From an uncultured Alphaproteobacteria bacterium (lineage in GTDB: Bacteria > Pseudomonadota > Alphaproteobacteria > Rs-D84): 64,000 nucleotides of DNA. Below, piece after piece: positions 25,707 through 41,944 of this stretch (the first letter of the stretch is position 1; every line of letters starts with the position of its first letter). Both the position numbers and the translations under genes were made by a program. Under the pieces are notes generated by a model, which worked only from the letters and a program-made list of their open reading frames with translations, was not told where the DNA came from and did no database searches. The stretch spans positions 169,532 through 233,531 of the forward strand of contig CALXMY010000001.1 of the NCBI GenBank assembly GCA_944389595.1, read 5' to 3'.

Positions 25707-25725
25707 ACCCCCTTTGTGATAAGCA

Positions 25726-26685: not shown

Positions 26686-26761
26686 CAAAATAATTTTATC
26701 ACAAATCGTGACTTGAATCAAAATGCTTTATTTGATAAAATTACAAAAAAGAGAGATAAAA

Positions 26762-27325
26762 ATGAAAAAAACTTTGCTGTTTATGCTGTGTTCTGTATTT
26801 ATGTTGGGGGCGTGTGCCACCGATACGGATATGCCATACAATGCGGACGATTTTGCCCAGGGTGGTGCCGATGCGCCATTGTATAACGAACGAACCAGTA
26901 CATTTATGCAATCGGAAAACCAATATTCCAATATTGATTCGTACAAGCCAAAAACTGATGCAGAAAAAGAGGCCAGTAACAACCGTTGGAACACATCGCG
27001 TATGGAAACCCGTTGGCAGGAATATCGTGGCACCATGGTGCGCGTACAAATTCTGTTGGGGAATACCGATTTGCGTGAAATGCGGTTGCGTTTGATACAA
27101 AACGCCGATGGCATGGATATTGATGGCGATGCCCGCACCGTATTGGCCAAGGTTGCAGATTATGAAATGAAACGCATATGTGGTCGTAACGCGGACAGTA
27201 TTGTAATGGTATACGATCGTCCATCATTTGATGTCATGCGGCCAACACCATATTTTGATTACCGGGTAGAGGCCGAGGGATCAACCATGCGTGAATATGG
27301 GTTCAGATGCGTGTATAATAATTAA
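26762..27325 (+). CDS. lipoprotein of unknown function
   Basis: MKKTLL...LGAC lipobox. Confidence 0.75.
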   Translation: MKKTLLFMLCSVFMLGACATDTDMPYNADDFAQGGADAPLYNERTSTFMQSENQYSNIDSYKPKTDAEKEASNNRWNTSRMETRWQEYRGTMVRVQILLGNTDLREMRLRLIQNADGMDIDGDARTVLAKVADYEMKRICGRNADSIVMVYDRPSFDVMRPTPYFDYRVEAEGSTMREYGFRCVYNN

Positions 27326-27360
27326 CAATAAACAAATATTAAAATACGGAGGATGAAGTA

Positions 27361-27690
27361 ATGAAAAAATTATTTTCTGCATTTGCGATTTGTGGTGCAA
27401 TGTTTTTGACCGCGTGTGACAGCAATGCCGGCGCACAAAATGGTGATACGGTTGTGATTGATTTCGCCGGGTACAAGGATGGTGTCGCATTTGATGGTGG
27501 CACCGCGACAAATTTCCCACTGGTTTTGGGCAGCGGTCAATTCGTCCCCGGGTTCGAAGAACAATTGATTGGTATGGAGCAGGGCGAAACACGTGATATT
27601 AATATCACATTCCCGGAAAATTATTATCCCGAATTGGCGGGCCAGGATGTCGTGTTTACGGTTACTGTTAATGAAATTGTAAAAAAATAA
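27361..27690 (+). CDS. FKBP-type peptidyl-prolyl isomerase lipoprotein (trigger-factor FKBP-like)
   Basis: Lipobox LTAC; GDTVVIDF.G...AFDGG...LGSGQFVPGFEEQLIG...FPENY. Confidence 0.9.
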   Translation: MKKLFSAFAICGAMFLTACDSNAGAQNGDTVVIDFAGYKDGVAFDGGTATNFPLVLGSGQFVPGFEEQLIGMEQGETRDINITFPENYYPELAGQDVVFTVTVNEIVKK

Positions 27691-27695
27691 AATTT

Positions 27696-27727
27696 AATCC
27701 CCCGCGTTATGCGGGGGATTTTTTTTT
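27696..27727. terminator. intrinsic terminator at the left edge of the phage-like cluster
   Basis: AATCCCCCGC-GTTAT-GCGGGGGATT followed by a T run. Confidence 0.8.
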
Positions 27728-27992
27728 AATTTGTTTTTATAACTGCACTTTTTATTAATGCAATATCTTCGCGTATAGTATCTATTTTAATTTGTATTTG
27801 GCCCAATCCGGTTTCCAATATTGTTGTACGGTTTTCCAATGACGTTATACGATTATTTGCGCGCGCCAAATCATCCAGTGACGAATCCTGGCGGGCGGCC
27901 CAATATATTACCCCCGCAATAAACGCAATCAGAAACCAACTGTTACGCAAAAAATCCAAAAAATTCATTGGGCCATATGGTCGAGTTGTCAT
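27726..27992 (-). CDS. small single-TM/coiled-coil protein (holin/XhlA-like accessory)
   Basis: One TM helix then a coiled coil; last gene of the portal operon. Confidence 0.55.
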   Translation of the reverse strand: MTTRPYGPMNFLDFLRNSWFLIAFIAGVIYWAARQDSSLDDLARANNRITSLENRTTILETGLGQIQIKIDTIREDIALIKSAVIKTN

Positions 27993-28183
27993 TATTTACC
28001 CCGTTCAATCAGGCTTTCTATTTGGTGAACCAATGCGCGTTGGGCCTCGATTCCGCGCAGTTCAGCATCTGTTGCGTTCGGGCCAACTGTGCGTTCAATG
28101 GTTATTTTGCGCAAATGGCGCATAACCGCCGCGCCGGATGCACTTAAAAAAGTACGTGCATAATTTTGTTCTAATTCCTTCAT
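27992..28183 (-). CDS. Bbp19-like phage protein
   Basis: YARTF....GAAVMRHLR......ELRGIEAQRALV pattern; located directly after the portal, as in podovirus head modules. Confidence 0.75.
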   Translation of the reverse strand: MKELEQNYARTFLSASGAAVMRHLRKITIERTVGPNATDAELRGIEAQRALVHQIESLIERGK

Positions 28184-28200
28184 TTGTTTTTCCCCCTGGG

Positions 28201-29424
28201 TTATAATATTGTTTCCGCCACCGCCATTTTTGTGATTGGTGCGATATATTTTAATTCCGCATCACTGTGCAATGATATTTTGTCGATAATTCCACGTCGT
28301 GATAAAATTTGTAACCCACGTTCCACCAACGGATGTATAAATTCATGCAGTAATCGTCCATATGTTGCGCCCAAAATTCGCATCATATCCGCATTACGTG
28401 CCAATATTTCCGTGGCGGTCATTTCTTTTTCACTTAACAGTCCCAATCTGTCGGCCAGTAATGTATGCCGAATGCGTTCGCGTAAATCTTTTAATACAAT
28501 TTGTGATACGTCAAAATTTGCGCCCGACGACAGCGGTGTCAATCCCGATGACCCAACGGCCTTTGGTATAATTGCACCCGGCGTTAAATTGATGTTTGAC
28601 AGATTAATAACCCCGTCATCATCGGCCTGCCATATGCCCGATACCGCAATAGTTGCATTTTTCAGCACCAATTCCACGACTTTGTTCGCGGTTTTTATAT
28701 CAGGCAATGCGCGCAACACCGGTCCGCGTCCGTATTGTTCGCCACTGGCCACGGACCACCGGAATATAATGTACGGATTTGTTTCAAACTTTCCCGTGGA
28801 CACGATATTATTTTCAATGTCGCCACCAACATCCAACCATGCCGTGAAGTCAGTCCCAATCAACGATTGCACCAATCGCAATGGTGTATCTGGGTTGTTT
28901 TTTATTGTGTCGCGCATATCAGACGGTGGTGTCCATGATGGGTATTTTTCCATTACTTCGTATGCGGGCATTGTTGCCGTATGAAACACTGCGCCCGGCA
29001 ATACGGCAATATCATGCATTGGAATCGCAGTAAACGAAAACGCAGATGCTGCGCCAATTGGATTTTCTGCCATAAACAGACATGCTGTACCCAATACGAT
29101 TAAATCCATATAGCATTGATGAATTGTTGTATAAAAATTAGAATCGTTCAAATTTGCGCGTAATGCCGCTGTTGCGGCAATCGCATCGGGTGATTTTTCA
29201 CTTTCGGGCACCAATGATAACCATAATGATTCCGGTGGTGTTAACAGTGTATAAATTGATGCGGCCAAATTGTCCGCGGCATCCGATGCGGTTGCATCAA
29301 ACAGTGTTGCAACATCGTTGTCTGATGTGGGAACAGTATATCGCAGTGCACTGTCCCAGCGTGCAATCCATGGTGCGCGCATGTCCAACGCACGGCGATA
29401 CATTTGTTGCAAATTATATTTCAT
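28201..29424 (-). CDS. portal protein (T7-like head-to-tail connector family)
   Basis: LFDATA..AA..LAA, LGTACL, RW....GE.YGRGP...ALPDIKTAN and MTATEI..R motifs. Confidence 0.92.
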   Translation of the reverse strand: MKYNLQQMYRRALDMRAPWIARWDSALRYTVPTSDNDVATLFDATASDAADNLAASIYTLLTPPESLWLSLVPESEKSPDAIAATAALRANLNDSNFYTTIHQCYMDLIVLGTACLFMAENPIGAASAFSFTAIPMHDIAVLPGAVFHTATMPAYEVMEKYPSWTPPSDMRDTIKNNPDTPLRLVQSLIGTDFTAWLDVGGDIENNIVSTGKFETNPYIIFRWSVASGEQYGRGPVLRALPDIKTANKVVELVLKNATIAVSGIWQADDDGVINLSNINLTPGAIIPKAVGSSGLTPLSSGANFDVSQIVLKDLRERIRHTLLADRLGLLSEKEMTATEILARNADMMRILGATYGRLLHEFIHPLVERGLQILSRRGIIDKISLHSDAELKYIAPITKMAVAETIL

Positions 29425-29447
29425 GATTTTAATCTCCCTTGGTTTTC

Positions 29448-30296
29448 TTATATTTTGAAATCGGTATTTGCTGAAAATAACTTCTGGTTAAAACCTGTTG
29501 GATGTACGGGTATCGGCATGGCGCATATTGCGCCCGCCAACGCATCCAATCCGTCATCGTGCATGCCACCACCAATCGGGGCCCAGCCCAACATTTCTGA
29601 AATCAGTGGGGTTGATTGTATTCGCACATGCGCATACATACGCCCAGATGTCAGAATCGGTTCAATGGCATCCAAAATCCTGGTTTCTTTGTTTTTTGTG
29701 TTTGTAATTCTGTTTATGGTTATTGTCATATTGCGGTGTGTTGATACATCGCGCATAATTTCTGGCAGTGCGTTTCCGATACCATTTGTTTCAATACTTA
29801 TTCGACGTATACCGTGATGGGCCATAAAATTTAATACTGTATCACATTGTCGTGCCAATGGATGTAATTCGTCGTCCGAAACCAATAAATACAGCACATC
29901 ATGAATAAATACGCATCTGTTTTTATCATCGCGGTACAATAATACGCATACGCTGCCATCAGAATTTTTATGTCCTGTGGATGGGTCCCAATAAATTGTG
30001 GCACCTGTAATCTTTGTGTTGCCAATTCGTGCAGTTCGTGCATCAAATTCCCCATTATACAGATGCAATGCGTCTGGATCCAAACGCGCCCTGTCAGGGG
30101 CGATAAAATCCAACATCATTTGTGCCGAAAAATATCGTGTGCCAACCATATCGCGAATTTCATTAATGCGCGTAATTGGAAACATTTCTGGCCACACGGG
30201 TTCGCCATCTGCGGAAATTATGGGAATTTTTAATTCACGATATCCGCGTAAAAAAGGCGTTGAAAAACTAAAATTTTTATATACCATATCTGACAT
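29448..30296 (-). CDS. terminase large subunit, C-terminal nuclease half
   Basis: PFL...WPEMF, FSAQMML, YWDPS, IETNGIG, KETRI and HDDGLDALAGA; GGGG SD on the minus strand inside dnaB codons. Confidence 0.85.
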   Translation of the reverse strand: MSDMVYKNFSFSTPFLRGYRELKIPIISADGEPVWPEMFPITRINEIRDMVGTRYFSAQMMLDFIAPDRARLDPDALHLYNGEFDARTARIGNTKITGATIYWDPSTGHKNSDGSVCVLLYRDDKNRCVFIHDVLYLLVSDDELHPLARQCDTVLNFMAHHGIRRISIETNGIGNALPEIMRDVSTHRNMTITINRITNTKNKETRILDAIEPILTSGRMYAHVRIQSTPLISEMLGWAPIGGGMHDDGLDALAGAICAMPIPVHPTGFNQKLFSANTDFKI

Positions 30297-31851
30297 GGAC
30301 TTTACCCCAAAGACTTTGCCAACAAATTTAGAGGCCGAACAGGCCGTTTTGGCCGCGGTGTTAATGAATAACCGTGCGCTGGAACGTGTGTCCGAATTTT
30401 TGCGGGCGGAACATTTTTCGCATCCTGCACACCAGGAAATTTACAAATTGGCCGAACGGCAATTTGCCGCCGGAATACCGTTTGATATCATCACCGCCAA
30501 AAATTATTTGGATCAACAGGGCGTATTGGAATCCGTGGGCGGTGTGGAATATTTAACCCAATTGGCATCTGCGGGCGCGACGGTTGTTAATGTTGAACAA
30601 TACGGTCGTATTGTTTATGAAAACGCGATGCGGCGCGAATTGATAAATTTGGGTCAATCCATAACCGATGCCGCATTTGTCGAGGATTTGGATAATCCTG
30701 TTTCCGCGCAAATCGAAACTGCCGAACAAAAATTGTTTGAAATGGCATCGGCCGGTGTTTCTGAACGTGATGTTGCATCAATTGGCACCGCGTTACAGGA
30801 TGCATTAAAAGAGGCCGAAATCGCATACAAGGCAGATGGCCGATTATCTGGTTTAACAACCGGATTAAACGCGTTGGATAAATCAATCAGTGGTTTGCAT
30901 CACAGTGATTTAATTATTATTGCCGGCCGTCCTGCAATGGGAAAAACAACATTGGCAATGAATATTGCGTTTAATGCGGCAAACGCGATTCAATTCGGGC
31001 GTGCAAATGAACGCTATCGCGGGGCGGTGGTATTTTTCAGTTTGGAAATGTCAAAATCTCAATTGGCGGCGCGCGTATTGTCATCGCAATCTAAAATACC
31101 TGCATCCGCCATGCGCGAGGGTTCATTAACCGACGAAGATTTTTTGAAAATGTCCCAATATGCGGACGCAATTGGCAAAGTTCCATTATTTATTGATGAT
31201 ACACCCGGGATGTCAGTGCCAATGATTCGCACCCGTGCGCGCCGTTTGGCGCGAAAATGCGGCGGTATCGCATTAATTGTGATTGATTATTTGCAATTAA
31301 TGACATCGCCCGGTGGCCGGAACAAGGATAACCGTGTCCAGGAAATATCTGAAATCACACGTGGGTTAAAAATGTTGGCCAAGGAATTGGATGTTCCTGT
31401 TATTGCATTGTCGCAATTGTCGCGCAGTGTCGAATCACGTGATGATAAACGGCCCCAGTTATCGGATTTGCGTGAATCGGGTTCAATTGAACAGGATGCT
31501 GATATTGTCATGTTCACCTATCGCGAGGAATATTATCTGGAAAACCGTGATCCGTCACAGCGTATTTCCGGTAACGCAAATGAAAAAATAATCGAAAGTT
31601 TTCAAAAGCGGTTGGAGCGCGCACGTGGCAAGGCCGACGTTATAATCGGTAAAAACCGTCATGGTCGCCCGGAAACTGTTCATTTGGCATTCTTTGGCGA
31701 TTACAGTTTGTTTGATAATCTGGATGAAATGAATGCGCGTGGTGAAAATGATTTTGGTAATGTGCCGCCCGCACAATCAATTCCGGATGATGGCGAAATG
31801 GAACCAACACCAATTGATGTTGATGCGATTCCGGACGATATGCCACTGTAA
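30295..31851 (+). CDS. dnaB: replicative DNA helicase
   Basis: Start MDFTPKTLPTNLEAEQAVL; AGRPAMGKT, FSLEMS, IDYLQL, LSQLSR and DLRESGSIEQDAD. Confidence 0.96.
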   Translation: MDFTPKTLPTNLEAEQAVLAAVLMNNRALERVSEFLRAEHFSHPAHQEIYKLAERQFAAGIPFDIITAKNYLDQQGVLESVGGVEYLTQLASAGATVVNVEQYGRIVYENAMRRELINLGQSITDAAFVEDLDNPVSAQIETAEQKLFEMASAGVSERDVASIGTALQDALKEAEIAYKADGRLSGLTTGLNALDKSISGLHHSDLIIIAGRPAMGKTTLAMNIAFNAANAIQFGRANERYRGAVVFFSLEMSKSQLAARVLSSQSKIPASAMREGSLTDEDFLKMSQYADAIGKVPLFIDDTPGMSVPMIRTRARRLARKCGGIALIVIDYLQLMTSPGGRNKDNRVQEISEITRGLKMLAKELDVPVIALSQLSRSVESRDDKRPQLSDLRESGSIEQDADIVMFTYREEYYLENRDPSQRISGNANEKIIESFQKRLERARGKADVIIGKNRHGRPETVHLAFFGDYSLFDNLDEMNARGENDFGNVPPAQSIPDDGEMEPTPIDVDAIPDDMPL

Positions 31852-31918
31852 TTATTTTCTGCTTGCCAATTCTGTTTATTTTGACTAAAATTTTGTCAAG
31901 AAATTCAAGGAGATTGCG

Positions 31919-32923
31919 ATGGCCCAAGAAGAAATAATTTTCCCAAATAATATCAGAAACATTCGTTTGGCCAACGGCATGAAAATGACCGAATTGGCGC
32001 GCCAGGCAAATTTATCTTTGTCGGCGGTTTCAAAAATAGAAAAGGGCGTACGCCGTCTGAATCAAAAACAGTTATTAAATATATGTAATATATTGGGCTG
32101 TAAATTATCAGATATTTTTATCAAGGAATCTGATGATGTTGCCGCACAATGGCAAAATGAAATCAAACGTCGTTTGACCGATAACGAAGATAACGGTCTG
32201 AAAATATTTGGCAGTGGTCTGCGCAAAATTCGCCAACAAACCGGTAAAACCATCGCCCAGGCGGCATCTGATGCGGGTATGACATTGTCCGTTTATCACA
32301 AGATAGAGGTTGGCCAACGCGAGATATATGAAAATGAAATTGAACCATTGGCAAAATCATTTGGTTATACCACAAATACATTGTTGGATAAAATTGCCGC
32401 ATTGTACAAGGCCGGCGAATTAACCAAACAAATAAATAAAATCCAGGAACGTGTAAAATCTGTATTGGTTCCGGGTAATCCAATGTCTGGTATTGACCAC
32501 AGCAGTTTATTCGGTGCCAAATTATATGACAGTGCACGTAAAAAATTGGTGCCTGTGTTTGGTGTACCATCTGGAAAAACAATCGCGTTTAAAAAATCTG
32601 ATAAAACAATGGTTGTCGCGCCGATTCCACTAGAAGGCCGCCAGGGCATTTACGCAGTTCGTCCAAATTCAAAACGTTTGGGTGGTTATATTCCTGAAAA
32701 ATCCTATGTTTTTGCGGATTCAGAAACCCCCGCATCGGTTGGTGATTTGGCGGTGTGTATCGATGCTGATTTCAATGCGCTGGATTCGAACGAGGTTGTT
32801 AATGCACAAATTGTCAGTGTTCGTTCCGATTCCAAGGGGCGTATTTATGGGCAAATTTCTTCGCCCGAAGAAAAAGTTACCGGCAAAACAATGCATCGTG
32901 TTATAATGATTGTTATGGAATAA
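31919..32923 (+). CDS. XRE-family regulator with two HTH domains
   Basis: NNIRNIR...ELARQANLSLSAVSKIEKG and GLRKIR...AGMTLSVYHKIEVG; C-terminal domain starts with VPVFG (CI-like). Confidence 0.85.
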   Translation: MAQEEIIFPNNIRNIRLANGMKMTELARQANLSLSAVSKIEKGVRRLNQKQLLNICNILGCKLSDIFIKESDDVAAQWQNEIKRRLTDNEDNGLKIFGSGLRKIRQQTGKTIAQAASDAGMTLSVYHKIEVGQREIYENEIEPLAKSFGYTTNTLLDKIAALYKAGELTKQINKIQERVKSVLVPGNPMSGIDHSSLFGAKLYDSARKKLVPVFGVPSGKTIAFKKSDKTMVVAPIPLEGRQGIYAVRPNSKRLGGYIPEKSYVFADSETPASVGDLAVCIDADFNALDSNEVVNAQIVSVRSDSKGRIYGQISSPEEKVTGKTMHRVIMIVME

Positions 32924-32946
32924 TCCGCCACCGCAGGAGGGGGAAA

Positions 32947-33621
32947 ATGAAAGCAAAAGCCAGTACCATTGCGCAAAAACTGTTAAATCTGTATCGCCAG
33001 GAACATGTAATTTTTGGTGGATGGGCCGCCGTAAATCAGGTGTTCGTGGACGAGGCAGATGATGATGTTTTGCGTGCGTTGCGTGATTTACCAACCGGGA
33101 AAAATCTGGTTCGGCACATAGAAAACCTGCGTTCTGGTAAAACCCCAATGGATTCCATAAATCATGAATTGTTGCCATATGGTGGCATGATGGATAAAAC
33201 AATCGCGACCGTGCCATTGACAGACGATGAATGGCGGCAATTGGAATCCGGAATTGATGAATTCACCACTGACCAGGATGGTTTGAACCGAATTCAACAA
33301 TTGCCCGTTATAAAAAAATTTGGTGATCAATGGTTGGTTGCAATTCGTGCGGCATTATCAAAACGTCCTGAATTATTGGAAAAATGGTCAATTGTTAATA
33401 AAACATATCGGGCGTATTATTTATGGAAGGTCGCCAGTGATATGTTAAATCAGCCACTAACCGAACGTGCACGTGCACAATTACAGGTCGATATGCCAGA
33501 ATATGAAACGTATTTACCAATGTTCGGCGATGCCGGAACGGAATTATTGGAAAAATTGCGTTCTTTTATTTCGACAATAAAGCCTGTGGATGAAAACAAC
33601 GGTGATAATTCCGCATATTAA
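32947..33621 (+). CDS. hypothetical protein
   Basis: 224-aa ORF with strong GGAGGGG SD; its stop codon abuts the terL-N stop. Confidence 0.8.
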   Translation: MKAKASTIAQKLLNLYRQEHVIFGGWAAVNQVFVDEADDDVLRALRDLPTGKNLVRHIENLRSGKTPMDSINHELLPYGGMMDKTIATVPLTDDEWRQLESGIDEFTTDQDGLNRIQQLPVIKKFGDQWLVAIRAALSKRPELLEKWSIVNKTYRAYYLWKVASDMLNQPLTERARAQLQVDMPEYETYLPMFGDAGTELLEKLRSFISTIKPVDENNGDNSAY

Positions 33622-34221
33622 TCATTCATGGGTACGATATATTGTATCCATTGTATGCGGGGTGCCAATGTAAATCATTGTACCATTGGGCGATAAAATA
33701 AAATCTAATTCGCGCAATCGTTCACGCAGATTTTCACGTTTTTGTGCGGTATTACTGGTGTTTGGTACCTCTATGTCATCGCATATAATTAAATCAGACC
33801 GCATACCTGTAATATTACCATGGATACCCTGGCATATAACGGATGGTTCGCGTATTCCAATTGGGCGATTTACTGTTATACGATCGTGCGCCCATTCTTT
33901 TTTAGTTGCCGGAATCAAATCTTTGCACATTGGATGATTTTCCAGTATATGTCGAATATGTGTGACCATTCGTGCCGCCAGATTATTTTCGGCCGATAAA
34001 ATTAAAATTCTGGTTGATGGATTCATGCGTAACACACACGCGGCAAATATTCCAACAACAGTCGATTTACCCGAATGCCGAAATGCCATTAATAATCCAC
34101 GATGTGGCGGTGTGGTCCATATTGATACCAAAAATTCCATAATAGTACGGTGATGTGCCGGTGTCCCCAGCCCCAGCACATCATTCCATGCATCCAAAAA
34201 CGCATAAAAATCATTTACCAT
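33622..34221 (-). CDS. terminase large subunit, N-terminal ATPase half
   Basis: P.HH, Walker A LLMAFRHSGKST, ITG.RSDLIICDDIE (Walker B) and YIGTP coupling motif, then a stop. Confidence 0.88.
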   Translation of the reverse strand: MVNDFYAFLDAWNDVLGLGTPAHHRTIMEFLVSIWTTPPHRGLLMAFRHSGKSTVVGIFAACVLRMNPSTRILILSAENNLAARMVTHIRHILENHPMCKDLIPATKKEWAHDRITVNRPIGIREPSVICQGIHGNITGMRSDLIICDDIEVPNTSNTAQKRENLRERLRELDFILSPNGTMIYIGTPHTMDTIYRTHE

Positions 34222-34229
34222 TGTTAATA

Positions 34230-34577
34230 CTAACCAACCAAATCATCAAATTTATCTAATATTGTTTGTAATAAATTTGGCCGTTTAGCCCGTGTATTAC
34301 GCAGTTTTTCAATGTTTGATTTACGTTTTTCGTTGTATGGTTCCGCTGTTTCCGATGCCAAACGTTTTAATACCGCGCCTGTGGACATGCTGCGCCCGGA
34401 AACCCCGGATGCACCATATTTTGCGCGCTGTGTGGCCAATGTTTTTTTTACCAAATTTGTTTTTTCACGTTCGTCATTTGCCATATCGGCCAATATTTTT
34501 TGGCGTTCGTTTGCGGCCTCTTTTTTTGAATCACGATAATTTAATATTGATGTAACATCAGATACTAATTGTCCCAT
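34230..34577 (-). CDS. putative internal virion/ejection-like protein
   Basis: Helical; QRAKYGASGV motif typical of podovirus internal proteins; follows the tail nozzle gene. Confidence 0.55.
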   Translation of the reverse strand: MGQLVSDVTSILNYRDSKKEAANERQKILADMANDEREKTNLVKKTLATQRAKYGASGVSGRSMSTGAVLKRLASETAEPYNEKRKSNIEKLRNTRAKRPNLLQTILDKFDDLVG

Positions 34578-34595
34578 TTGTTTTTCCTTTGTTTT

Positions 34596-36311
34596 TTATA
34601 CAATATAATAGCCATATGTCGTAATTGATAACACAGTTGCACGGAATTGTTCGGTGCTGGAAATTGTCCATGGTGCATTTGTACATGTACGTTGGCATCC
34701 CATAAAGTTTATGCATACATCGCCGGTATACCCGTTTGATTCAGAATCGTATATATCATTTGGCAGCGATGCACGTTCGCCATTTATAAAAATAGTTTTT
34801 GTATCCGAAATTCTGGCAACAATTTTTCGTATGCGCAGCATGTGTGCATTATGGCCCGATGCACGCATCGGTAATGCCGCCGCGGTATATGAAAAATCAT
34901 ATTGTTCGGCATCGCGTATGGCATCGTCTGAAAATCTTTCCAAATAATATTCGTTGCCACGCGCGACAACGACATATGTTTCATCGCCGGTTGTGGCCAC
35001 TGATTTGAATTGTCCATTTGTCGTATATCGTGCCCATGCAGAAATGCCCAATGCAGAATTTTGATTTAATACCGCCATATCGCCATTTGACATAACAACA
35101 AACAGTTGTCGGATTGCGGGGTTATATGATAAATCCACCGGATTATGCATCAAATGTTTGGCCTGGGTACACAAATCGCGCGCATTATAATTTTCGCCCA
35201 ATGCATCCAACGATAATTCGCGAATGTCCTTTTGTGTGTTTGATATAAATACAGTTGCGCCCTCTATTTTTTGTGGTGGCAGATATCGTGTCGTCACACT
35301 GCCCACGGATGTATGTTGTTTTATGTCAACATTTGACGGTGTTAACGGTTTGCTGGAAATTGCCCATTCACCGGCATTAGTTAATATTTGCAGATTATCA
35401 CTGCTGACAACTGTACATATTTCCTGGCGTTGTTGGGATAACAGTGTTAAAAATATTGCTTCGTCGTCCAATCCGGTGCCGGTATCAAAGTTATTATGAT
35501 GCCCAACACGGGACATCCAAATTCCGCCGGGCCATTCGCGCGAACCGCCAAACACTAATCTGTCCTGGTGAAATGTGATGCTGCATGGCCATCCACGACG
35601 TGCACTGAATGCGGATTCATACCAATCTGTAACAGGCGAGGGCGGAATGTTATATTGTTTGTTCGTATATGCATATATGACGGTCGGGCTGATATATTTT
35701 ACAATTTGCCATTGATTGTTCAGCAACATCAACTGGCCGCCAACACAATTTTGCGTCCAAAAATCTTGGTTAGTGGTAAATGTGGCATAGTTATTACCGT
35801 AACTGTTTGGTGTGACTGTAATTTTAATATCTTTTGAATCGTCAAAGCGCATAAATGGGATATTGATGGTCATATCGGCATCGTTGCGTTCAAATTCAAA
35901 TGGAATTAAACTAAATATATCATCAGATTTTTGCAATATTTGTGGTTGATAATCTGGGTGTACAAAAATCATAGTACCAAAACGTTGGGCATATTGTAAT
36001 TTTGGTAAATCATCAACATCCCATGGCGACATCATATCGCGTATGCGCGTGGTGCCATCATATATCATAAAGTGCCCATCGGTCAGAACAATTAAATAAT
36101 TTTCCGTATTCCCCATAGAGAAAGGAATTAATCGCGCCACAGAATTCAGTTCCGCGACCGATTCCAATCCGCGTCGCCGTTTTAATCCACCGCCGGCCAT
36201 AACATCCATATTTTCCAATTTTGATAATCCATTTAAATTATCGTGCGCAAAAAATTCTGGGGACACTTCGCCATCAGCAAAAGAATTTTGAGTCTTTATA
36301 AAATCGGCCAT
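34596..36311 (-). CDS. tail tubular protein B (nozzle, T7 gp12-like)
   Basis: QNSF..GEVSP, GG..RR.G, F.QDRL.FGG and AW.RY motifs. Confidence 0.85.
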   Translation of the reverse strand: MADFIKTQNSFADGEVSPEFFAHDNLNGLSKLENMDVMAGGGLKRRRGLESVAELNSVARLIPFSMGNTENYLIVLTDGHFMIYDGTTRIRDMMSPWDVDDLPKLQYAQRFGTMIFVHPDYQPQILQKSDDIFSLIPFEFERNDADMTINIPFMRFDDSKDIKITVTPNSYGNNYATFTTNQDFWTQNCVGGQLMLLNNQWQIVKYISPTVIYAYTNKQYNIPPSPVTDWYESAFSARRGWPCSITFHQDRLVFGGSREWPGGIWMSRVGHHNNFDTGTGLDDEAIFLTLLSQQRQEICTVVSSDNLQILTNAGEWAISSKPLTPSNVDIKQHTSVGSVTTRYLPPQKIEGATVFISNTQKDIRELSLDALGENYNARDLCTQAKHLMHNPVDLSYNPAIRQLFVVMSNGDMAVLNQNSALGISAWARYTTNGQFKSVATTGDETYVVVARGNEYYLERFSDDAIRDAEQYDFSYTAAALPMRASGHNAHMLRIRKIVARISDTKTIFINGERASLPNDIYDSESNGYTGDVCINFMGCQRTCTNAPWTISSTEQFRATVLSITTYGYYIV

Positions 36312-36326
36312 AATAATCCCCCTGTG

Positions 36327-36848
36327 TTAAAATCGTGCATTTATTAATGAAAAGTTATTTATACGGTTGTCTGGGTTTGATGCAGTGCTGTCAATAAATT
36401 TTGCAGATTGTAATTCGCTTTCATACAATGCGGCCAACATGCGGAATACAGATTGATCGCCGGTCAATGGTATACAAAATTCCATCGCCAATTTTGTTGC
36501 AACCAATGATGAAAAATACGCCGGAAACTGTTGTGCATCAATACGTATAATCGCAGTTATGGAAATTGTATCATTGTCTGATATAATTCTGTTGCCAACT
36601 ATATTTCCGCCACATCGTAACACGCGCAGGCATTCACCCGGAATTATAAAATTGCCGTCGGTGCTTTTTGCCAAATCAAAATGTTTGCATGCAAATCGCC
36701 ACGGATGTGATGCCAATAATGTATCAACAACTGGATTAAACAGTGTTCGCGACAATTGCGATGCAGGATTATCATCGTTCAATGATTGTATTGGCTTTTC
36801 ACCCAATTTTAATAACGCCATTGAACATAAATCGATTTTTGTTTGCAT
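36327..36848 (-). CDS. tail tubular protein A (adaptor, T7 gp11-like)
   Basis: IDLCSMAL..LG..PI.S...LL..HPWRFA, FP.YF...LA and A..IDS motifs. Confidence 0.85.
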   Translation of the reverse strand: MQTKIDLCSMALLKLGEKPIQSLNDDNPASQLSRTLFNPVVDTLLASHPWRFACKHFDLAKSTDGNFIIPGECLRVLRCGGNIVGNRIISDNDTISITAIIRIDAQQFPAYFSSLVATKLAMEFCIPLTGDQSVFRMLAALYESELQSAKFIDSTASNPDNRINNFSLINARF

Positions 36849-36870
36849 ATCTTAATACCCTGGGTTAGAA

Positions 36871-36902
36871 AAAATCGGGACAGTTAAAAACCGTCCCGAT
36901 AA
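36871..36902 (-). terminator. terminator after the capsid and decoration genes
   Basis: ATCGGGAC...GTCCCGAT hairpin with a T run on the minus strand. Confidence 0.7.
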
Positions 36903-36906
36903 ATTG

Positions 36907-37137
36907 TTATGATAAGGCAGCAACAGAAACATTCGTTGAATCAACAGAAATTTTTTTAATTGATGTGTTGTCAGAACCGTTGATTATTATAATGTCCCCG
37001 GTGTTCATCAATGTTTTTACACTGTTAAAATATCCCGATGTACTGATTGTCGCCAATGTTTCCGATGCAGCATAATGCCACAATGTAAATCCATTTGCGT
37101 ATGCAATCACAGATAAATTTTTATTTTGAAACGCCAT
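36907..37137 (-). CDS. small capsid-associated (decoration-like) protein
   Basis: MAFQNKNLSVIAYANGFTLWHY...GYFN...GD.I; sits between the capsid gene and its terminator. Confidence 0.7.
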   Translation of the reverse strand: MAFQNKNLSVIAYANGFTLWHYAASETLATISTSGYFNSVKTLMNTGDIIIINGSDNTSIKKISVDSTNVSVAALS

Positions 37138-37183
37138 TTGATTTGTTCCTTTGGTTGTTTTGGTTGAACTTGATGTCAATCGA

Positions 37184-38014
37184 CTATTCCGTTTCATCTG
37201 AATCCTTGCATTTAATTCTTACGATACCATCGGCATCAATCATAACTGCGCCCTGGGACATGCTGTTGCTGATAAAGTGCGCCGCACGTTCACCATGCCA
37301 CGAGATATCTGTTTTTACCTCTTGGCCACATGCGTGCCCGATACTGGTTGCGTGATACATAAAACAATCGCGATTAGTTCCGGTCAACGGCAAATCGTTA
37401 TACAACACCCATGTAATCCCCAGCCATTTTTTTGATGCGCCACCGGAAATCATCGGCAAATTATCGCCAACATAATCCGCAGAAACAAATTCGTCCATTG
37501 ACAATAATTCGTTCCATTGATGTACGCCAACAACCGCAAATCTGCGGCCGTCATCCGGCACATCATTTTGATTCAACACTTCCAATGCAGATAAAATTAA
37601 ATCTTTGCTAAGTCCGGTTGAATAATCGCCGATTGATTTGGTTGCGCCGTTCATTGCGGATACAATCAATTCATCGGTTTTGCGGCCCAGTGCATATGCG
37701 CCGGCCGATGCAACCACACGACGTTCATCAACGTTTGTTTTTAATTCATCCAATGCATCAACCCAATCACCTGCATAATAATCTTGTAATACACATTCAA
37801 CAGGTTCATGATTTAAATTCATAACTGGTACAATACCATGACGCGATTTTGTGCTGGCGGTGCCACGTCCAACTTTTTGAAACGTAGTGGATGCCCCAAC
37901 AACGCCGGATTTACTGCGCACGGTGGCGCGTAATTTTGTGCCCATTTGTTGATATGCCAAATGAACGTCGGCCTCGAATTGTTTTATAAAGACCTGGTCA
38001 ACTGAAACAGACAT
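37184..38014 (-). CDS. major capsid protein
   Basis: FIKQFEADVHLAYQQMGTKLR, WVD.LD.LK, AYALGRKTD and S.GA..ID..G, characteristic of podovirus-type capsids in alphaproteobacterial clusters. Confidence 0.88.
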   Translation of the reverse strand: MSVSVDQVFIKQFEADVHLAYQQMGTKLRATVRSKSGVVGASTTFQKVGRGTASTKSRHGIVPVMNLNHEPVECVLQDYYAGDWVDALDELKTNVDERRVVASAGAYALGRKTDELIVSAMNGATKSIGDYSTGLSKDLILSALEVLNQNDVPDDGRRFAVVGVHQWNELLSMDEFVSADYVGDNLPMISGGASKKWLGITWVLYNDLPLTGTNRDCFMYHATSIGHACGQEVKTDISWHGERAAHFISNSMSQGAVMIDADGIVRIKCKDSDETE

Positions 38015-38136
38015 TTTTAATTTTCCTTTGTTTATAAAAAATGAAACAGCAATAAAAATTGCGATTATATTTTTAAATGGTTATGCATAACACTATGCGC
38101 CATATATAAACTGGGTCCCGGTTGGGATTATCCAAA

Positions 38137-38179
38137 AAAATATTCAGTCAGACGCGCGTACATTCTGACTGAATATTTT
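38137..38179. repeat. 16-bp inverted repeat upstream of the capsid gene
   Basis: AAAATATTCAGTCAGA-(11 nt)-TCTGACTGAATATTTT. Confidence 0.7.
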
Positions 38180-38225
38180 AAAAAAATTATTCAAATAAAA
38201 ATCCCCGTTTTACCGGGGATTCAAA

Positions 38226-38579
38226 TTATTTTCTTTTTGCACATGCTTTTTTAGCAACCGGCTTTTTCGCGGCCACTTTTTTCGCAGGTGCTTTTTTAGC
38301 AACTGGTTTTTTAGCTGCGACTTTTTTTACAACTGCTTTTTTAGCAACTGGTTTTTTTGCAGCAACTTTTTTCGCAGGTGCTTTTTTAGCAACTGGTTTT
38401 TTTGCAGCAACTTTTTTCACAGGTGCTTTTTTAGCAACTGGTTTTTTTGCAACGACTTTTTTCGCAGCAGGTTTCTTCGCAGCAGGTTTTTTCACTGCCG
38501 GTTTTTTTGCAGCCGGTTTCGCCGCTGGCTTTTTCGCAGCAGGTTTCTTTGCAGCTGGTTTCAAGAATGTGAATGCCAT
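38226..38579 (-). CDS. histone H1-like Lys/Ala/Pro-repeat protein (HctB/AlgP-like)
   Basis: [17 protein letters not shown]...([14 protein letters not shown])n; AAGGAG SD; own terminator at ~38197-38222. Confidence 0.88.
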
Positions 38580-38683
38580 TCTTCTCTCCTTTTTATTTTT
38601 TGGATAGAACAAACTTTTTTGTTCTTACTTACATTTTATACGAAAGAAAAAAAATAGTAAAGGAGAAAGTGCATTTTTTTTTA

Positions 38684-39340
38684 TTACGAATATAATTTTT
38701 TAAAACCATTTTCAATTTTGCGAACGTATTCTGGATCATGATCACGCCAATATTTTGGATCACGCATCATGCGTCGCAATTCATCATCAGTTAAATTTTT
38801 TGATGCCACATCATCTGTTTGAACATGTGGTTCCATTGATTGCATCATTGCATATACGCTGCGGATTCCCTGGGGTGTGGCGCACAGTGCATCAAACGCA
38901 TCACGTGGTAAATATTTTTCGCCGAATGCATTTATTGCAATTAATGCTTCGCGCATTTTATCACTGTCCCCGAAAAAATTTTTTAATTCATTTGTTGCAT
39001 TTGTTTCATCTTGGGCATCAAACAATTCTGATAAAACAGGTTTCAAATATTCTTCGGCAATTTGATAAATTTTTTCAACCTGTGTTTTTGTCAGTCCCAT
39101 TTCAAAAAATTTTTCACGAACCGAATCGTCATCAAATAATTTATTTTCCGGATATTCCGATGCAGACATTGGTACGCCAATTGCATGATTAAACTTTGCG
39201 CGCGCATCTGCGTCCGCGTTTTCATCAGGCACAGAAATCATCGTTCCGATTTTCTTTTCCAATGCAGCATACGATTTCAATAATGCGTCAGTATTTAATG
39301 TTCCGTCTTTATTCAGAAATTTTTCTGGAATTTTCTCCAT
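38684..39340 (-). CDS. capsid assembly/scaffold protein
   Basis: MEKIPEKF...DALLKSY.ALEKK, GLT..Q and M.DPKYW..DP motifs; upstream of the capsid gene. Confidence 0.8.
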   Translation of the reverse strand: MEKIPEKFLNKDGTLNTDALLKSYAALEKKIGTMISVPDENADADARAKFNHAIGVPMSASEYPENKLFDDDSVREKFFEMGLTKTQVEKIYQIAEEYLKPVLSELFDAQDETNATNELKNFFGDSDKMREALIAINAFGEKYLPRDAFDALCATPQGIRSVYAMMQSMEPHVQTDDVASKNLTDDELRRMMRDPKYWRDHDPEYVRKIENGFKKLYS

Positions 39341-39530
39341 TTGTTTTTCCTTTGGTTTCGCTGGATTTGCGCAGAAAATAAATTCCGCCAAATGTAAATA
39401 TTGATTGCAGCATTGTAAATACATCTGTGTCACCAACCAGATACGCACCGATTGATGATAATATTCCAATGCCTGATATAATGTATGTTCTGTGTCCGGC
39501 CAGAAAACCGCCACTGATAATTTTTTGCAT
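39309..39530 (-). CDS. holin-like small membrane protein
   Basis: G.RTYI motif, two hydrophobic segments, FLR and a basic tail; coupled to the cell wall hydrolase gene. Confidence 0.6.
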   Translation of the reverse strand: MQKIISGGFLAGHRTYIISGIGILSSIGAYLVGDTDVFTMLQSIFTFGGIYFLRKSSETKGKTNGENSRKISE

Positions 39531-39548
39531 TTTGTAATCCGTTTTGTT

Positions 39549-39959
39549 TTACAGATAAAACAATAATCCATCTATGTCGGCAATATAACCACGCGATATT
39601 GCCCATGCGGGTATTTTACAATCGCGATGAAAACGTGTGGCCCCATAACAACAATCGGGCAGGCCGCCGTGTAACATACGTGTCGCAACGCGAACACACA
39701 TTTGCATTTCGCGATTATTTATTTCCACATTATTTAAATGATGATTGCGTGACGCGGGATTTATTGATTCGAATAATTCTGTATCAGACACAACATCATC
39801 AATTGTGCGGCCGGTTGCGATTGCATTATTTTTTATCATTGATGTCAGTGCTTCGACCACACGCAGTGATGCCGCACATGTTTCCGCATATACAACGCGT
39901 GCAATTTTATATGCAATCCGTTGTGAACTGTCCGGATTTTTTATCAATATTAATTTCAT
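39549..39959 (-). CDS. SleB-like cell wall hydrolase (Hydrolase_2), divergent
   Basis: IARVVYAE (catalytic Glu position), LPD...GAT.FH, P.WA and I....FY. Confidence 0.75.
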   Translation of the reverse strand: MKLILIKNPDSSQRIAYKIARVVYAETCAASLRVVEALTSMIKNNAIATGRTIDDVVSDTELFESINPASRNHHLNNVEINNREMQMCVRVATRMLHGGLPDCCYGATRFHRDCKIPAWAISRGYIADIDGLLFYL

Positions 39960-40114
39960 GCAAATGATTCCCTTGGATTATTTATGAAATAAAAAAGGGC
40001 CGCACATTTTATGCGACCCAAAATAAAAATCCGCCGGTTTCCCGCGGACATACTTTTAACTGTTTATGTGCATAATAATATCATATTTTGAAACGAAAGT
40101 CAAGAGAATATTTT

Positions 40115-40795
40115 CTACATACTGATTTCATCGCCATATGCCAGCATATATCGTGAACCATTGCGCAATACCAACGCGCCATTTTCGTTGATTCCGATTA
40201 ATTCAACATTATCACCACGGTATTTAACAATTTTGTTTAATCCGGTTGCTAAATCCATCCATCGTGCACGTATCAATGGAAAATCAATTTGCCGCCATTT
40301 GTCCAAATTTTTCATCAATTTATTTAACAGTTCTGATTTTTCAACGCGCGCATAGTTGTCCAGTTTTGTTGTTTTATAACCGGGCACGGTTGGATTGGAT
40401 TTAATATTTATTCCAATTCCAATAATTACAAAGCGTCCCGCGTATTCAATCAATATCCCACAAACTTTTTTATCATCAATTAAAATATCATTTGGCCATT
40501 TTATTTTTGGATTTATACCAAAGGATATTAACGTTTCTGTAACCGCCACCGCAACAACATATGCCAGGCGCGGGTCGCGTTCTTCGGCAGAAAATATAAA
40601 ACTGGCGTATAAATTGCCATGGTGTGAAACCCATGTGCGGTGATATCGTCCGCGACCATCAGATTGGGCCTCGGCCATTATGACGGTATGGTCGCGCGCA
40701 TCACCCATTGCAACCATATTTAATGCATATGTTTGCGTGCTGGGGATTTTATCAAAAGAAATTAATTTATAGCCGGCCAATTTTATACACCCCAT
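40115..40795 (-). CDS. birA: biotin--[acetyl-CoA-carboxylase] ligase
   Basis: IPSTQ, Q..GRGR....W.S, KWPND and KK.CGIL motifs. Confidence 0.95.
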   Translation of the reverse strand: MGCIKLAGYKLISFDKIPSTQTYALNMVAMGDARDHTVIMAEAQSDGRGRYHRTWVSHHGNLYASFIFSAEERDPRLAYVVAVAVTETLISFGINPKIKWPNDILIDDKKVCGILIEYAGRFVIIGIGINIKSNPTVPGYKTTKLDNYARVEKSELLNKLMKNLDKWRQIDFPLIRARWMDLATGLNKIVKYRGDNVELIGINENGALVLRNGSRYMLAYGDEISM

Positions 40796-41189
40796 TTGAA
40801 TTTATTATAAATTCACGCCCAAATGTTTTTCGTAATTGATATATTGCAGTATCCAATGCATGTGTTGTTGCATCTGGTGAATACCCCAATGCGGCCCGTA
40901 AATCTGTGGCGGACATGCCGCCCGATTTATATAACAATATAACGATTTGTGATTGTATATGTGGTAATTGCACATTTCGGCCAAAAATTTTGCGCAACAA
41001 TTGAATGTTTCCATCAATGGAATTTAATATTGCGGCCTTGATTTCAACGGGACTGGCCGGCATGGGAATTTCCAACGAATCAAAATCCAAAAATGTTTTA
41101 TCCGGCACATCGGACACAGTTGCGCCCATCTCGGCCAGTATCTGGCACCATATTTTGTCGGCCGAATAAATTTTTATTCCATTCAACAT
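40767..41189 (-). CDS. OmpR-type winged-helix protein with degenerate receiver
   Basis: LGYSPDATTHALDTAIYQLRK...GVYKI (Trans_reg_C-like); likely start MLNGIK at 41189. Confidence 0.75.
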   Translation of the reverse strand: MLNGIKIYSADKIWCQILAEMGATVSDVPDKTFLDFDSLEIPMPASPVEIKAAILNSIDGNIQLLRKIFGRNVQLPHIQSQIVILLYKSGGMSATDLRAALGYSPDATTHALDTAIYQLRKTFGREFIINSNGVYKIGRL

Positions 41190-41278
41190 ATCAATAACAG
41201 AATAGTAAAACATACCCATGTTGTCCAATAAAATCGACCGCGGTAAAACCGCGGTCAATATTGCGCGATTATAATATA

Positions 41279-41524
41279 CTATTCGCGTTCTTTGCTTTGT
41301 GGACCAATGAACTTGGTAAAATCTTGGATACTGGCACCGGTTGATGACAGAATTTTTGAAATACTGTTCGTGGACGGCCACCGTGGTTGGCCTTCTTTGG
41401 ACCATCTTTTGCTGCGATTAAAAGTGGTGGGATCCAACCCGCTGCATTTTGCCAAACCTGAACACGACATACCGTGTTCTGTTGCAAAGCGTTCAATTGC
41501 CTGCCAAACATCTTCATGGGTCAT
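41279..41524 (-). CDS. phage-repressor-like HTH regulator lacking the S24 domain
   Basis: MTHEDVWQAIERFA...SGLAK.SGLDPTTFN.SKR....RWPST.SI.K, the N-terminal domain of a conserved alphaproteobacterial CI-like family; GAGGAG SD. Confidence 0.85.
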   Translation of the reverse strand: MTHEDVWQAIERFATEHGMSCSGLAKCSGLDPTTFNRSKRWSKEGQPRWPSTNSISKILSSTGASIQDFTKFIGPQSKERE

Positions 41525-41730
41525 TTTTTCTCTCCTCTGGTTACTATTCGGAAAAATCCGAATTTTTTGACATATGGGACATATGTCTGATATTGATTTT
41601 ATTCCACTGCGTCCGACCAGGCAACAAGGACCATTTCCTAATTCATTGATTATAGTCCTAAAAATAATACCAAAAAATAATTTTGACAAAAATACTTGAC
41701 AAATAACATAAAATGTATTACATTTCGATT

Positions 41731-41921
41731 CGTCAAAGGGGGTAACCCCGGCGATGGGGCGCAAGCCCCCATGGGGTCCAGGGATTCAGACTCCCTCCTA
41801 CATTCTCTCTCCTCTGGACTCTGGGCCCCAATTTTATGGTTTAGAATGCCCATTTCTTTTTCTCCTTTCCTTCCTTTCGGGGCATTCGGAAACACCGGCG
41901 GGAAACCGCCGGCGTTTTTTT
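41731..41921 (+). ncRNA. candidate sRNA with CU-rich (anti-SD) loops
   Basis: TTGACA-17-TACATT promoter (41696-41724); four GC-rich hairpins, two with pyrimidine-rich loops; strong terminator CCGGCGG-GAAA-CCGCCGG + T run. Confidence 0.7.
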
Positions 41922-41944
41922 ATTAACAGTAAATTTATTGATAA

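Follow-up and report, generated by a model that had tools for sequence, protein, structure and literature searches.

Does a set of podovirus-type virion genes, lodged among the housekeeping genes of a sub-megabase gut bacterium, mark a prophage in decay or a particle that its host has kept? The question is raised by a gene cluster at 27726-39959 of a 64,000-nt stretch of contig CALXMY010000001.1 (the window, whose numbering is used throughout), from a genome of Candidatus Enterousia in the order Rs-D84 (935 kb or 0.94 Mb, 97% complete). A preliminary description had taken this cluster for a domesticated virion module and a candidate gene transfer agent (GTA) of a type unlike RcGTA, the GTA of Rhodobacter capsulatus. 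We identified its genes from a listing of open reading frames (ORFs), Pfam and PHROG family scans of the window and PDB sequence searches. The cluster proved real, with portal, capsid, scaffold, tail tubular proteins A and B and a Bbp19-like protein recognised by family or PDB matches, and it constitutes a virion gene set of the T7/BPP-1 type, Bordetella phage BPP-1 being presumably the source of the Bbp19 family name. It is well supported that the host has kept these virion genes, which have diverged along with it, are regulated and belong to a lineage unlike RcGTA, and that they are no prophage in decay. That it specifies a functional domesticated particle of some kind we regard as highly probable, and to the more specific reading, a domesticated, vertically inherited podovirus-type particle that transfers DNA, that is, a GTA-like 'viriform' of a family distinct from RcGTA, we give a probability of about 0.6.

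Enterousia belongs to the GTDB order Rs-D84, gut bacteria with genomes below 1 Mb that are thought to depend on other cells, and the mSphere paper on Rs-D84 contains 'phage', 'capsid' and 'gene transfer agent' 0 times (PMC12306168). Portal relatives among the best 80 of 174 confirmed genome_contigs stretches are 80-91% identical and, where titles are named, come from Candidatus Enterousia; the host species is present in chicken-gut runs (20 rows, 11 studies). We found no paper on this cluster or on a podovirus-type GTA in Alphaproteobacteria, in a search outside which lay subscription journals and supplementary files.

Retention and selective constraint in Rs-D84

The virion genes lie on the '-' strand and follow one another in the direction of transcription as hydrolase, scaffold, an ORF rich in lysine, alanine and proline (K/A/P), capsid, 76-aa protein, tubular A, tubular B, a gp14-like gene and the N piece of the large terminase (terN); downstream of terN, after a 3.3-kb gap, come the C piece (terC), portal, Bbp19-like gene and orf88 (Table 1). 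Contrary to the earlier statement that all is on one strand, dnaB, a 2xHTH protein gene and orf224 lie on '+'; dnaB inside the cluster, and birA and an FKBP-like lipoprotein gene flanking it, had been described correctly. In the 935-kb genome, dnaB and every gene of the cluster are present once.

A capsid match was present in 38 of 41 relatives, comprising all 24 genomes of the genus and 14/17 from other Rs-D84 genera, and was nearly always single-copy. Gene order was identical in 10/10 same-genus loci, the dnaB-HTH-orf224 insert included. This insert occurs in 0/10 loci from other Rs-D84 genera, which hold the same genes in another arrangement, with the portal moved or the hydrolase and tubular B displaced, and with host genes interleaved. 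The synteny check suggested for close relatives thus found the capsid in all 24 genus genomes and one gene order in all 10 genus loci. Nei-Gojobori (NG86) dN/dS, calculated for orthologues from up to 91 genus loci and pairs with dS 0.1-1.5, was 0.075-0.22 for nine cluster genes represented by at least 77 sequences each (terN and terC by 81-87 species), values that are rough since dS is near saturation (medians 1.2-1.4). None of the values, for cluster or host genes, came near 1, in agreement with what the preliminary description expected of a functional element, and by these sequence comparisons the cluster genes are kept by purifying selection.

Retention, synteny and dN/dS already contradict the view of the cluster as an ordinary prophage, defective or inducible to this day, of a temperate podovirus like BPP-1 or the pelagiphages; such a prophage would merely persist and perhaps transduce occasionally, and we consider it very improbable. 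It would have to be a prophage that is single-copy at a fixed locus with the essential host gene dnaB inside it, and is kept in genomes below 1 Mb across an order. Nor does it have the usual attributes of one. There is no integrase near the cluster, the genome's only tyrosine recombinases being two Xer-sized genes on other contigs; family scans of the window revealed no replication gene of phage type in the virion set; no tRNA lies near the cluster; and direct repeats in 24000-44000 consist only of the K/A/P codon repeat and shared ribosome-binding-site (RBS) motifs, none being att-like. The scans and the repeat search thus bear out the reported lack of an integrase and of att-like repeats at the cluster.

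Descent across the Alphaproteobacteria

In a family-balanced draw of 401 Alphaproteobacteria, 86 genomes carried the capsid (match cut-off E <=1e-10), about 70 of them with 50-67% identity, almost all in single copy and in genomes of 1-6.6 Mb, so that the related clusters predicted elsewhere do exist as homologues in many other alphaproteobacterial families. The RcGTA marker GTA_TIM was found in 33/401 genomes and together with the capsid in 0, a lack of overlap that fits the published restriction of large RcGTA clusters to one clade (PMC5721377), and to which we attach no p-value because related genomes are not independent. Neither the PF05065 capsid nor GTA_TIM (PF13547) was detected in the 97%-complete Enterousia genome, with Caulobacter as control positive for both, and the distinction drawn earlier from RcGTA therefore stands.

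The usual class-level order is portal, Bbp19, scaffold, capsid, a small protein, tubular A, tubular B and gp14-like, followed by 2-4 kb of other genes and then by the one-piece large terminase (TerL) and the hydrolase. One low-GC example, L132, spans ~14 kb with host genes at both ends; among its genes are those for a fibre (phrog_1640), a lysozyme and a PF11351 'GTA_holin_3TM' holin, with none for an integrase or replication, and an S24 repressor (PF00717) flanks it.

At three depths of relatedness, identity to this genome was 81-93, 64-72 and 50-67% for the capsid versus 63-93, 41-55 and 38-53% for DnaB, and hence the capsid is better conserved than DnaB at every depth. Maximum-likelihood trees of both proteins from 48 genomes in 26 families have 23/45 splits in common (1000 label shuffles: mean 0.23, maximum 3), among them those uniting all 15 Rs-D84 genomes and Rs-D84 with four sister families. 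Patristic distances correlate (Mantel Spearman 0.65; 0/999 permutations reached it), and summed capsid distances amount to 0.71 of DnaB distances. This agreement indicates that descent was vertical across many alphaproteobacterial families. The tree congruence that had been put forward as a check is thus borne out for the capsid against DnaB as the single host marker, and vertical inheritance in a reduced-genome alphaproteobacterium is upheld by the 38/41 relatives, the 10/10 identical orders and the 23/45 shared splits taken together.

A capsid that evolves more slowly than DnaB on a concordant tree, and genes scattered differently between families yet intact, speak further against a persisting prophage. 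In favour of a prophage it can be said that IMG/VR lists such regions as viral contigs, that class-level clusters hold a CI-like S24 repressor, lysozyme and holin, and that a human-faecal 5-kb scaffold filed as an unverified 'Bacteriophage sp.' (MT838907; L113, 1-5084) encodes a 62%-identical capsid. This scaffold has the compact gene order of class-level clusters, with portal, scaffold protein, capsid, small protein and tubular A, and breaks off within tubular B, of which it holds the start. Capsid relatives are encoded by 170 viral-contig stretches of IMG/VR; the best 80 of these are contigs of 3.7-21 kb, provirus-type calls of the same cluster, many of which begin exactly at the capsid gene, and no full-size phage genome of 35-40 kb is among them. 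MT838907 may itself be host DNA of a gut alphaproteobacterium and not phage.

The closest isolated phage is Pelagibacter phage EXVC031P 'Hodr' (OQ414635), with 43% capsid identity. Its order is alike, running from the portal to Bbp19, scaffold, an unassigned gene, capsid, small protein, tubular A and tubular B, but it has a 34-kb genome with early genes and large internal proteins (ORFs of 783 and 1247 aa), which the cluster lacks. T7 shares with the cluster the type of its portal and nozzle.

A large terminase in two pieces

The terminase of the preliminary description is present, though not as one gene: its coding sequence is divided into two ORFs 3.3 kb apart, with '+'-strand host genes between them. 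Walker A, GTPH and Walker B with its catalytic Glu are all retained in TerN; TerC retains the final strand and the lid of the ATPase fold together with the RNase-H-like nuclease (WDPS, ETNGIG, DDGLDA). Each piece has its own start and stop, and two polypeptides are therefore expected. The '+' ATG of dnaB overlaps the '-' ATG of terC divergently (CATG at 30294-30297), with no intergenic DNA, and the terN stop abuts that of orf224 at 33621/33622; terminase pieces and insert thus leave no spare bases.

The same division was seen wherever both pieces could be compared in Rs-D84. A separate terN ORF occurs in 10/10 non-genus Rs-D84 loci and a separate terC ORF in the 9 holding terC, while in the 10 genus loci terN and terC match separately, one on each side of the insert of opposite strand. 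When the sequences of the window and six other Rs-D84 loci were aligned (MAFFT) with seven one-piece relatives, the break fell at one loop in 7/7 split sequences, after GTPH...TIY and ~10 residues before PFLxGF, a position that places the fission inside the ATPase fold. A single terminase ORF of 486-616 aa spans both pieces in 15/20 class-level loci.

Interrupted terminase coding sequences are also known from phages, and in the Jug phages the split terL pieces are reported to be rejoined by group I intron splicing (PMC12880540). Our case differs in its opposite-strand host genes between the pieces, in their own starts and stops, and in the lack of an Rfam intron: at gathering thresholds none was found in L023, L027, L030, L031 or L032 (3 tRNAs only), and the window at 26000-43000 gave, at E <=0.1, one sub-threshold ylbH match only. 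An intron or trans-splicing as explanation of the split is thus unsupported by scans of these five loci and the window.

Modelled as a complex, with each piece supplied as an alignment, TerN and TerC gave an interaction prediction score from aligned errors (ipSAE) of 0.86 in 3/3 runs (best of 3 controls 0.00), a value reached by 58/80 solved complexes and 2/110 mismatched pairs; solved one-piece TerL structures may drive the model, however, so that it shows likeness to TerL and not binding. At least 92% of contacts agree between runs and the predicted local distance difference test (pLDDT) value of the partner is at least 76, with TerC residues 14-26 placed against TerN residues 41-50, next to the P-loop.

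A split gene also invites the reading that the cluster is a decaying relic, in which the division is pseudogenisation and only some genes (e.g. the capsid) are retained, because they serve some unrelated function in the cell. Besides the two pieces themselves, this could appeal to the failure to find terC in genus g6, to a tubular B gene that is split in one locus, L032, and to the fibre, which in this genome has been moved or lost from the cluster (see below). In g6, a whole-genome profile search did not find terC in either genome (G029, 99% complete; G036, 72%), terN and the capsid being kept and the portal found only in G029, which argues against both halves being indispensable everywhere. 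We nevertheless judge a relic to be quite unlikely. Every Rs-D84 lineage compared has the split at the same homologous loop; the two ORFs are unbroken and retain all their motifs, with dN/dS of 0.11 for terN and 0.17 for terC in 81-87 species; the remaining virion genes, too, are intact and constrained; and the regulatory leader is conserved with compensatory changes. Maintenance of the terN and terC motifs at such ratios argues for DNA packaging. In the g6 locus L029 (G029:C64), terN directly precedes the portal gene.

Gene set, leader and a model of the particle

Conservation extends to the DNA ahead of the first gene. The spacer between birA and the hydrolase gene is 155 nt long and contains a promoter whose core is identical in 10/10 same-genus loci and whose motif has 1 match in the window against 0 expected; the same motif, followed by a terminator, precedes the first cluster gene in L133 of family f63. 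Downstream of the promoter come an invariant CATAAAC-type stretch and then two hairpins, the sequences of which vary between species with pairing kept: compensatory changes were found for 7/7 predicted pairs of the second, t2 (10 species), and the first, t1, is absent in 1/10 loci (L017). Lambdoid late operons follow this design, their terminators blocking a promoter that looks constitutive.

The first gene of class-level clusters, conserved and divergent from the S24 repressor, encodes a ~105-aa protein whose homologue in this genome is unlinked (G000:C1:70780-71094). It occurs in 37/41 Rs-D84 relatives, and both genomes of genus g10 lack it together with the capsid, portal and fibre. In the class sample it was found in 57/401 genomes, 51 of them among the 86 capsid carriers and 0 among the 33 GTA_TIM carriers, and in at least 24 genomes it lies 3-16 kb from the capsid gene. 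The protein matched no Pfam or PHROG family and has no PDB sequence relative (best E 0.97). In a VIA-align comparison of its AlphaFold model (pLDDT 87.5) with 48,161 chains, the best match was the Q antiterminator 6jnx_P (Z 5.7, rmsd 3.9, 89 aligned), followed by AlpA 7xyb_G (Z 5.3, rmsd 3.9, 85 aligned) and sigma region 4 domains (Z <=4.8); since Z below 8 can arise by chance for helical proteins, the weak resemblance of the modelled protein to Q antiterminators is a lead only.

A tail fibre, said to be missing, is indeed not in the window, but the genome has one, and in most relatives it lies inside the cluster. Class-level clusters encode, after the gp14-like gene, a fibre with a T7 gp17-type N-terminal anchor; in this genome its sole relative, an ORF of 299 aa, lies at G000:C1:249748-250647, ~40 kb from the cluster and 16 kb past the window end, and the N-terminus of this ORF matches phrog_2710 (9e-10) and phrog_1640 (1e-8). 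Fibre relatives occur in 33/41 Rs-D84 genomes, and a fibre of 178-240 aa stands between the gp14-like gene and terN in 7/10 genus loci and 8/10 other Rs-D84 loci. The remaining genus loci, L013, L015 and L021, have, like the window, no room for it beside terN, and their genomes (G008, G003 and G004) each have a fibre match elsewhere. In G003 and G004 the ORFs measure 302-326 aa, the match in G003 being interrupted by a stop; in G008 the matches are on short contig ends. Conservation of the fibre is limited to its N-terminal third. The T7-type portal, tubular A and B and a fibre with this anchor are those of a T7-like structural module, of whose internal ejection proteins only gp14 has a weak match here.

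The remaining features are collected in Table 1. The hydrolase, first gene of the late unit, has a homologue that follows TerL in class-level clusters; the Pfam match that makes it SleB-like is weak. From the sequence, the scaffold likely starts at the ATG at 39339-39337, giving 218 aa, because the shared RBS motif precedes this codon and relatives align only from about residue 79. The K/A/P-rich, H1/Hc2-like ORF lies between scaffold and capsid, where an ORF of similar composition is found in 9/9 Enterousia loci and four family-f3 loci, with none at that place in class-level clusters. It and the 76-aa phrog_18004 protein are the ORFs formerly called a decoration protein, a name that finds no support; in Hodr and in almost every locus the latter comes after the capsid gene, and it is followed here by the terminator at 36900-36874. 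Homologues of the gp14-like gene occupy the same place in class-level clusters, and the Bbp19-like gene has the portal or the scaffold gene as its neighbour both in relatives and in Hodr. The 'holin-like' label rests weakly on orf88, whose hydrophobic segment and coiled coil make it a candidate lysis or membrane protein. Shine-Dalgarno (SD) sequences and internal terminators were confirmed as an SD-type motif common to several cluster starts and four intrinsic terminator-like hairpins on the '-' strand (40019-39997, 38222-38199, 36900-36874 and 27720-27696), of which the last three stand after the K/A/P ORF, the capsid unit and orf88, respectively; the one at 27720-27696 is bidirectional and closes the unit.

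Table 1. Features of the cluster and its surroundings in the direction of '-' strand transcription, with dN/dS where available.
Feature	Position	Strand	Matches and remarks	dN/dS
Small Cro/CI-type HTH protein	41279-41524	-	PF13443 weak; then terminator 41259-41233	
birA (host)				0.185
Invariant promoter	40075-40104	-	CTTGACTTT, 12 nt, TGATATTAT; -35 TTGACT 40103-40098; -10 TATTAT 40080-40075	
Leader with tandem hairpin + T-run terminators	39991-40049	-	t1 ~40049-40025, t2 40019-39991; between promoter and first gene	
SleB-like cell-wall hydrolase, 136 aa	39549-39959	-	PF07486 E 4.6e-4 (below cut-off); phrog_938 endolysin 3.5e-7	0.335 (7 pairs only)
Scaffold	38684-39339, long ORF to 39571	-	PF05396 2e-10	
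K/A/P-rich histone-H1-like ORF, 15-nt periodic repeat	38226-38579	-	PF07382 HC2 1.4e-18, low-complexity match	
Major capsid protein, 276 aa	37184-38014	-	PF19821 1.4e-72; phrog_3437; PDB 9eg4_A 1.9e-26	0.075 (1444 pairs)
Small conserved protein, 76 aa from conserved ATG	36907-37137	-	phrog_18004 1e-12	
Tail tubular protein A (adaptor), 173 aa	36327-36848	-	phrog_394 4e-33; PF17212 weak	0.197
Tail tubular protein B (nozzle), 571 aa	34596-36311	-	phrog_376 3e-84; PDB 8ck1_A 'Tail Nozzle' 1.1e-28	0.182
gp14-like internal virion protein candidate (orf115), 115 aa	34230-34577	-	directly after nozzle gene; PF24072 T7_gp14 E 0.014, below cut-off	0.213
Large terminase N piece (terN), 199 aa	33622-34221	-	phrog_38 positions 270-459, 6.5e-42	0.114
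orf224	32947-33621	+	host gene between terminase pieces	
2xHTH protein gene	31919-32923	+	host gene between terminase pieces	0.084
dnaB, genome's only one	30295-31851	+	host gene between terminase pieces	0.057
Large terminase C piece (terC), 282 aa	29448-30296	-	phrog_38 positions 468-703, 1.7e-38; PF22530	0.170
Portal (head-to-tail connector), 407 aa	28201-29424	-	PF12236 2.2e-77; PDB 9efk_A, 7y1c, T7 portals 6r21 and 3j4a	0.081
Bbp19-like protein, 63 aa	27992-28183	-	PF25181 3.1e-9	0.223
orf88, one N-terminal hydrophobic segment + coiled coil	27726-27992	-	XhlA E 0.028, phrog_736 7.6e-4, both weak	0.136

Among the neighbours, the priA gene (22860-25067) and a VirB11-type ATPase gene (25726-26721) adjoin the cluster, so that, with dnaB inside, the virion genes sit among replication genes. 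The small HTH protein at 41279-41524 is a homologue of the N-terminal domain of L132's S24 (CI/LexA-like) repressor (49% identity over 77 aa). Paralogues of ~76-81 aa are encoded at G000:C1:163575-163799 and C4:45467-45658, which makes its tie to the cluster uncertain, and all three lack the peptidase domain. Upstream of birA, a 140-aa protein (orf140; 40770-41189, '-') has an OmpR/PhoB-type winged-helix C-terminus and no receiver domain (by eye and weak Pfam matches); it is kept in 9/9 genus loci compared, but none was seen beside the cluster outside the genus, and it was rejected as a member of the system.

Such a gene set could also specify a domesticated particle with another function, the same assembly with other cargo or target: a competitor-killing device, a means of delivering DNA or protein to the partner of a presumed obligate symbiont, or a capsid-like compartment. 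We think this unlikely, while taking it seriously. All the evidence for domestication applies to it just as well; the fastest-evolving parts are the distal fibre and the tubular proteins, as would suit contact with a variable surface; the large ejection proteins of the T7 gp15/gp16 type are missing, tblastn with the large Hodr ORFs and class-level accessory genes having found no homologue in the genome; terC was not found in g6; a polycationic H1-like ORF sits in the head module; and Rs-D84 has been proposed to depend on other cells (PMC12306168). Against it stand the ATPase and nuclease motifs that both terminase pieces keep at dN/dS 0.11-0.17, and the retained portal, scaffold and nozzle. 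We know of no podovirus-type tailocin, nor of any protein-filled HK97 capsid with a terminase.

A DNA-transferring, GTA-like particle remains our preferred reading, and the following points weigh against it, in addition to the near-saturated dS, the possible influence of TerL structures on the complex model and the failure to find terC in g6. Three of the 17 genomes from other Rs-D84 genera had no capsid or portal match (completeness 80, 92 and 63%). In L032 (7578-9518, genome G030) tubular B is encoded by two ORFs of 265 and 371 aa and terN lacks its first ~26 residues, which could be decay or an assembly error. A small terminase, which the preliminary description had proposed to look for, was not detected in the genome. 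The CI-like S24 repressor kept in class-level clusters is a prophage-like trait. For the ~105-aa protein, Foldseek returned nothing at E <=0.001, and its Q-likeness is of the low Z already given. PDB 9eg4, the nearest solved capsid entry, has 7 chains, and by analogy the particle may be T=7; such a head could hold the whole 12-kb cluster, and the criterion that a GTA 'cannot carry itself' might then not apply. Expression data for 24500-44400 came, in all cases as contigs, from one RNA library, two libraries filed as RNA-Seq but probably DNA, and one DNA library; contigs of the RNA library cover 29/30 bins at a depth of 0-7.7, alike over cluster and flanks, which shows neither transcription nor silence. 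Finally, the particle, its packaged DNA and its transfer are predicted from the genes.

On the preferred reading we envisage the following course of events. Transcription would start at the one invariant, strong promoter upstream of the hydrolase gene and would normally end at the two leader terminators and at those that follow the scaffold unit and the capsid unit, except in some of the cells, where the unlinked, weakly Q-like protein would allow RNA polymerase to read through. Procapsids would form on the portal, and TerN and TerC, rebuilding one ATPase-nuclease by strand complementation, would fill the heads with host DNA, presumably without sequence specificity, as the failure to detect a small terminase suggests. 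Tails and fibres would then join, the hydrolase and orf88 would lyse the producer cell, and the particles would adsorb to other Enterousia cells. RcGTA recipients use ComEC and DprA for DNA uptake. Because the large T7 gp15/gp16-type ejection proteins are missing, we propose that here too DNA probably enters the recipient through ComEC/DprA, both of which the genome keeps; being common genes, they lend this weak support.

Several known systems come close. RcGTA, of the family Rhodogtaviriformidae, and its Caulobacter counterpart CcGTA likewise consist of phage-derived head, tail and packaging genes passed on vertically over the depth of the Alphaproteobacteria, without integrase or replication genes, with some genes unlinked (a multi-locus 'genome') and with terminators inside the cluster, and the PF11351 'GTA_holin_3TM' holin of class-level clusters is a further likeness; antitermination control has been reported for CcGTA (PMC11150451). 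They differ in having an HK97-type capsid and a long tail, instead of the PF19821 capsid, T7-type portal and short tail of tubular A/B found here, and the two systems never co-occur in the 401 genomes. BaGTA, the GTA of Bartonella and of the family Bartogtaviriformidae, is also a domesticated capsid, packaging and lysis module in a reduced-genome alphaproteobacterium, and the reported release of its terminator-blocked capsid operon by the Q21-like antiterminator BrrG (bioRxiv 10.1101/2024.11.20.624540) matches the promoter-terminator leader and weakly Q-like small protein described here. It differs in gene sizes and order (terminase 1344 nt, portal 1863 nt, then 840 nt and 1119 nt; Guy et al. 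2013), being set apart by this published gene list and not by sequence, and is coupled to a run-off replication origin, of which none was seen here. FpGTA of Faecalibacterium prausnitzii, called the first GTA-like element of podovirus-like morphology (PMC12946183), is by description similar in its gut host, its supposed podovirus-like form and its distribution over more than one locus; its host, though, is one of the Firmicutes and there is experimental evidence for its packaging, whereas the present system is read from genes.

New beyond the preliminary description are the conserved two-piece terminase, the unlinked fibre and the promoter-terminator leader with its co-occurring small protein. 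Tentatively, and with somewhat less confidence than doubt, they can be joined into a wider proposal: a second ancient alphaproteobacterial GTA, podovirus-derived, may have been domesticated near the base of the RcGTA-less lineages and have co-diverged with them since, so that it is present in about one-fifth of the family-balanced sample, and may be kept in sub-megabase gut symbionts with a split, two-protein terminase and a late operon under a Q-like antiterminator encoded elsewhere. A terminase that has stayed divided within its ATPase fold throughout the history of an order is informative on the construction of packaging motors, and the leader, with the small protein that co-occurs, is similar to the arrangements reported for BaGTA and CcGTA. 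If the particles do move DNA, such 'viral contigs' of ~10 kb, as listed in IMG/VR and found in gut viromes, would have to be taken for host genes; much of the class thought to be without a GTA would have one, including deep-branching lineages outside the RcGTA clade and the uncultured, genome-reduced gut order Rs-D84; and these tiny, probably partner-dependent genomes would gain a route of recombination against mutational decay.

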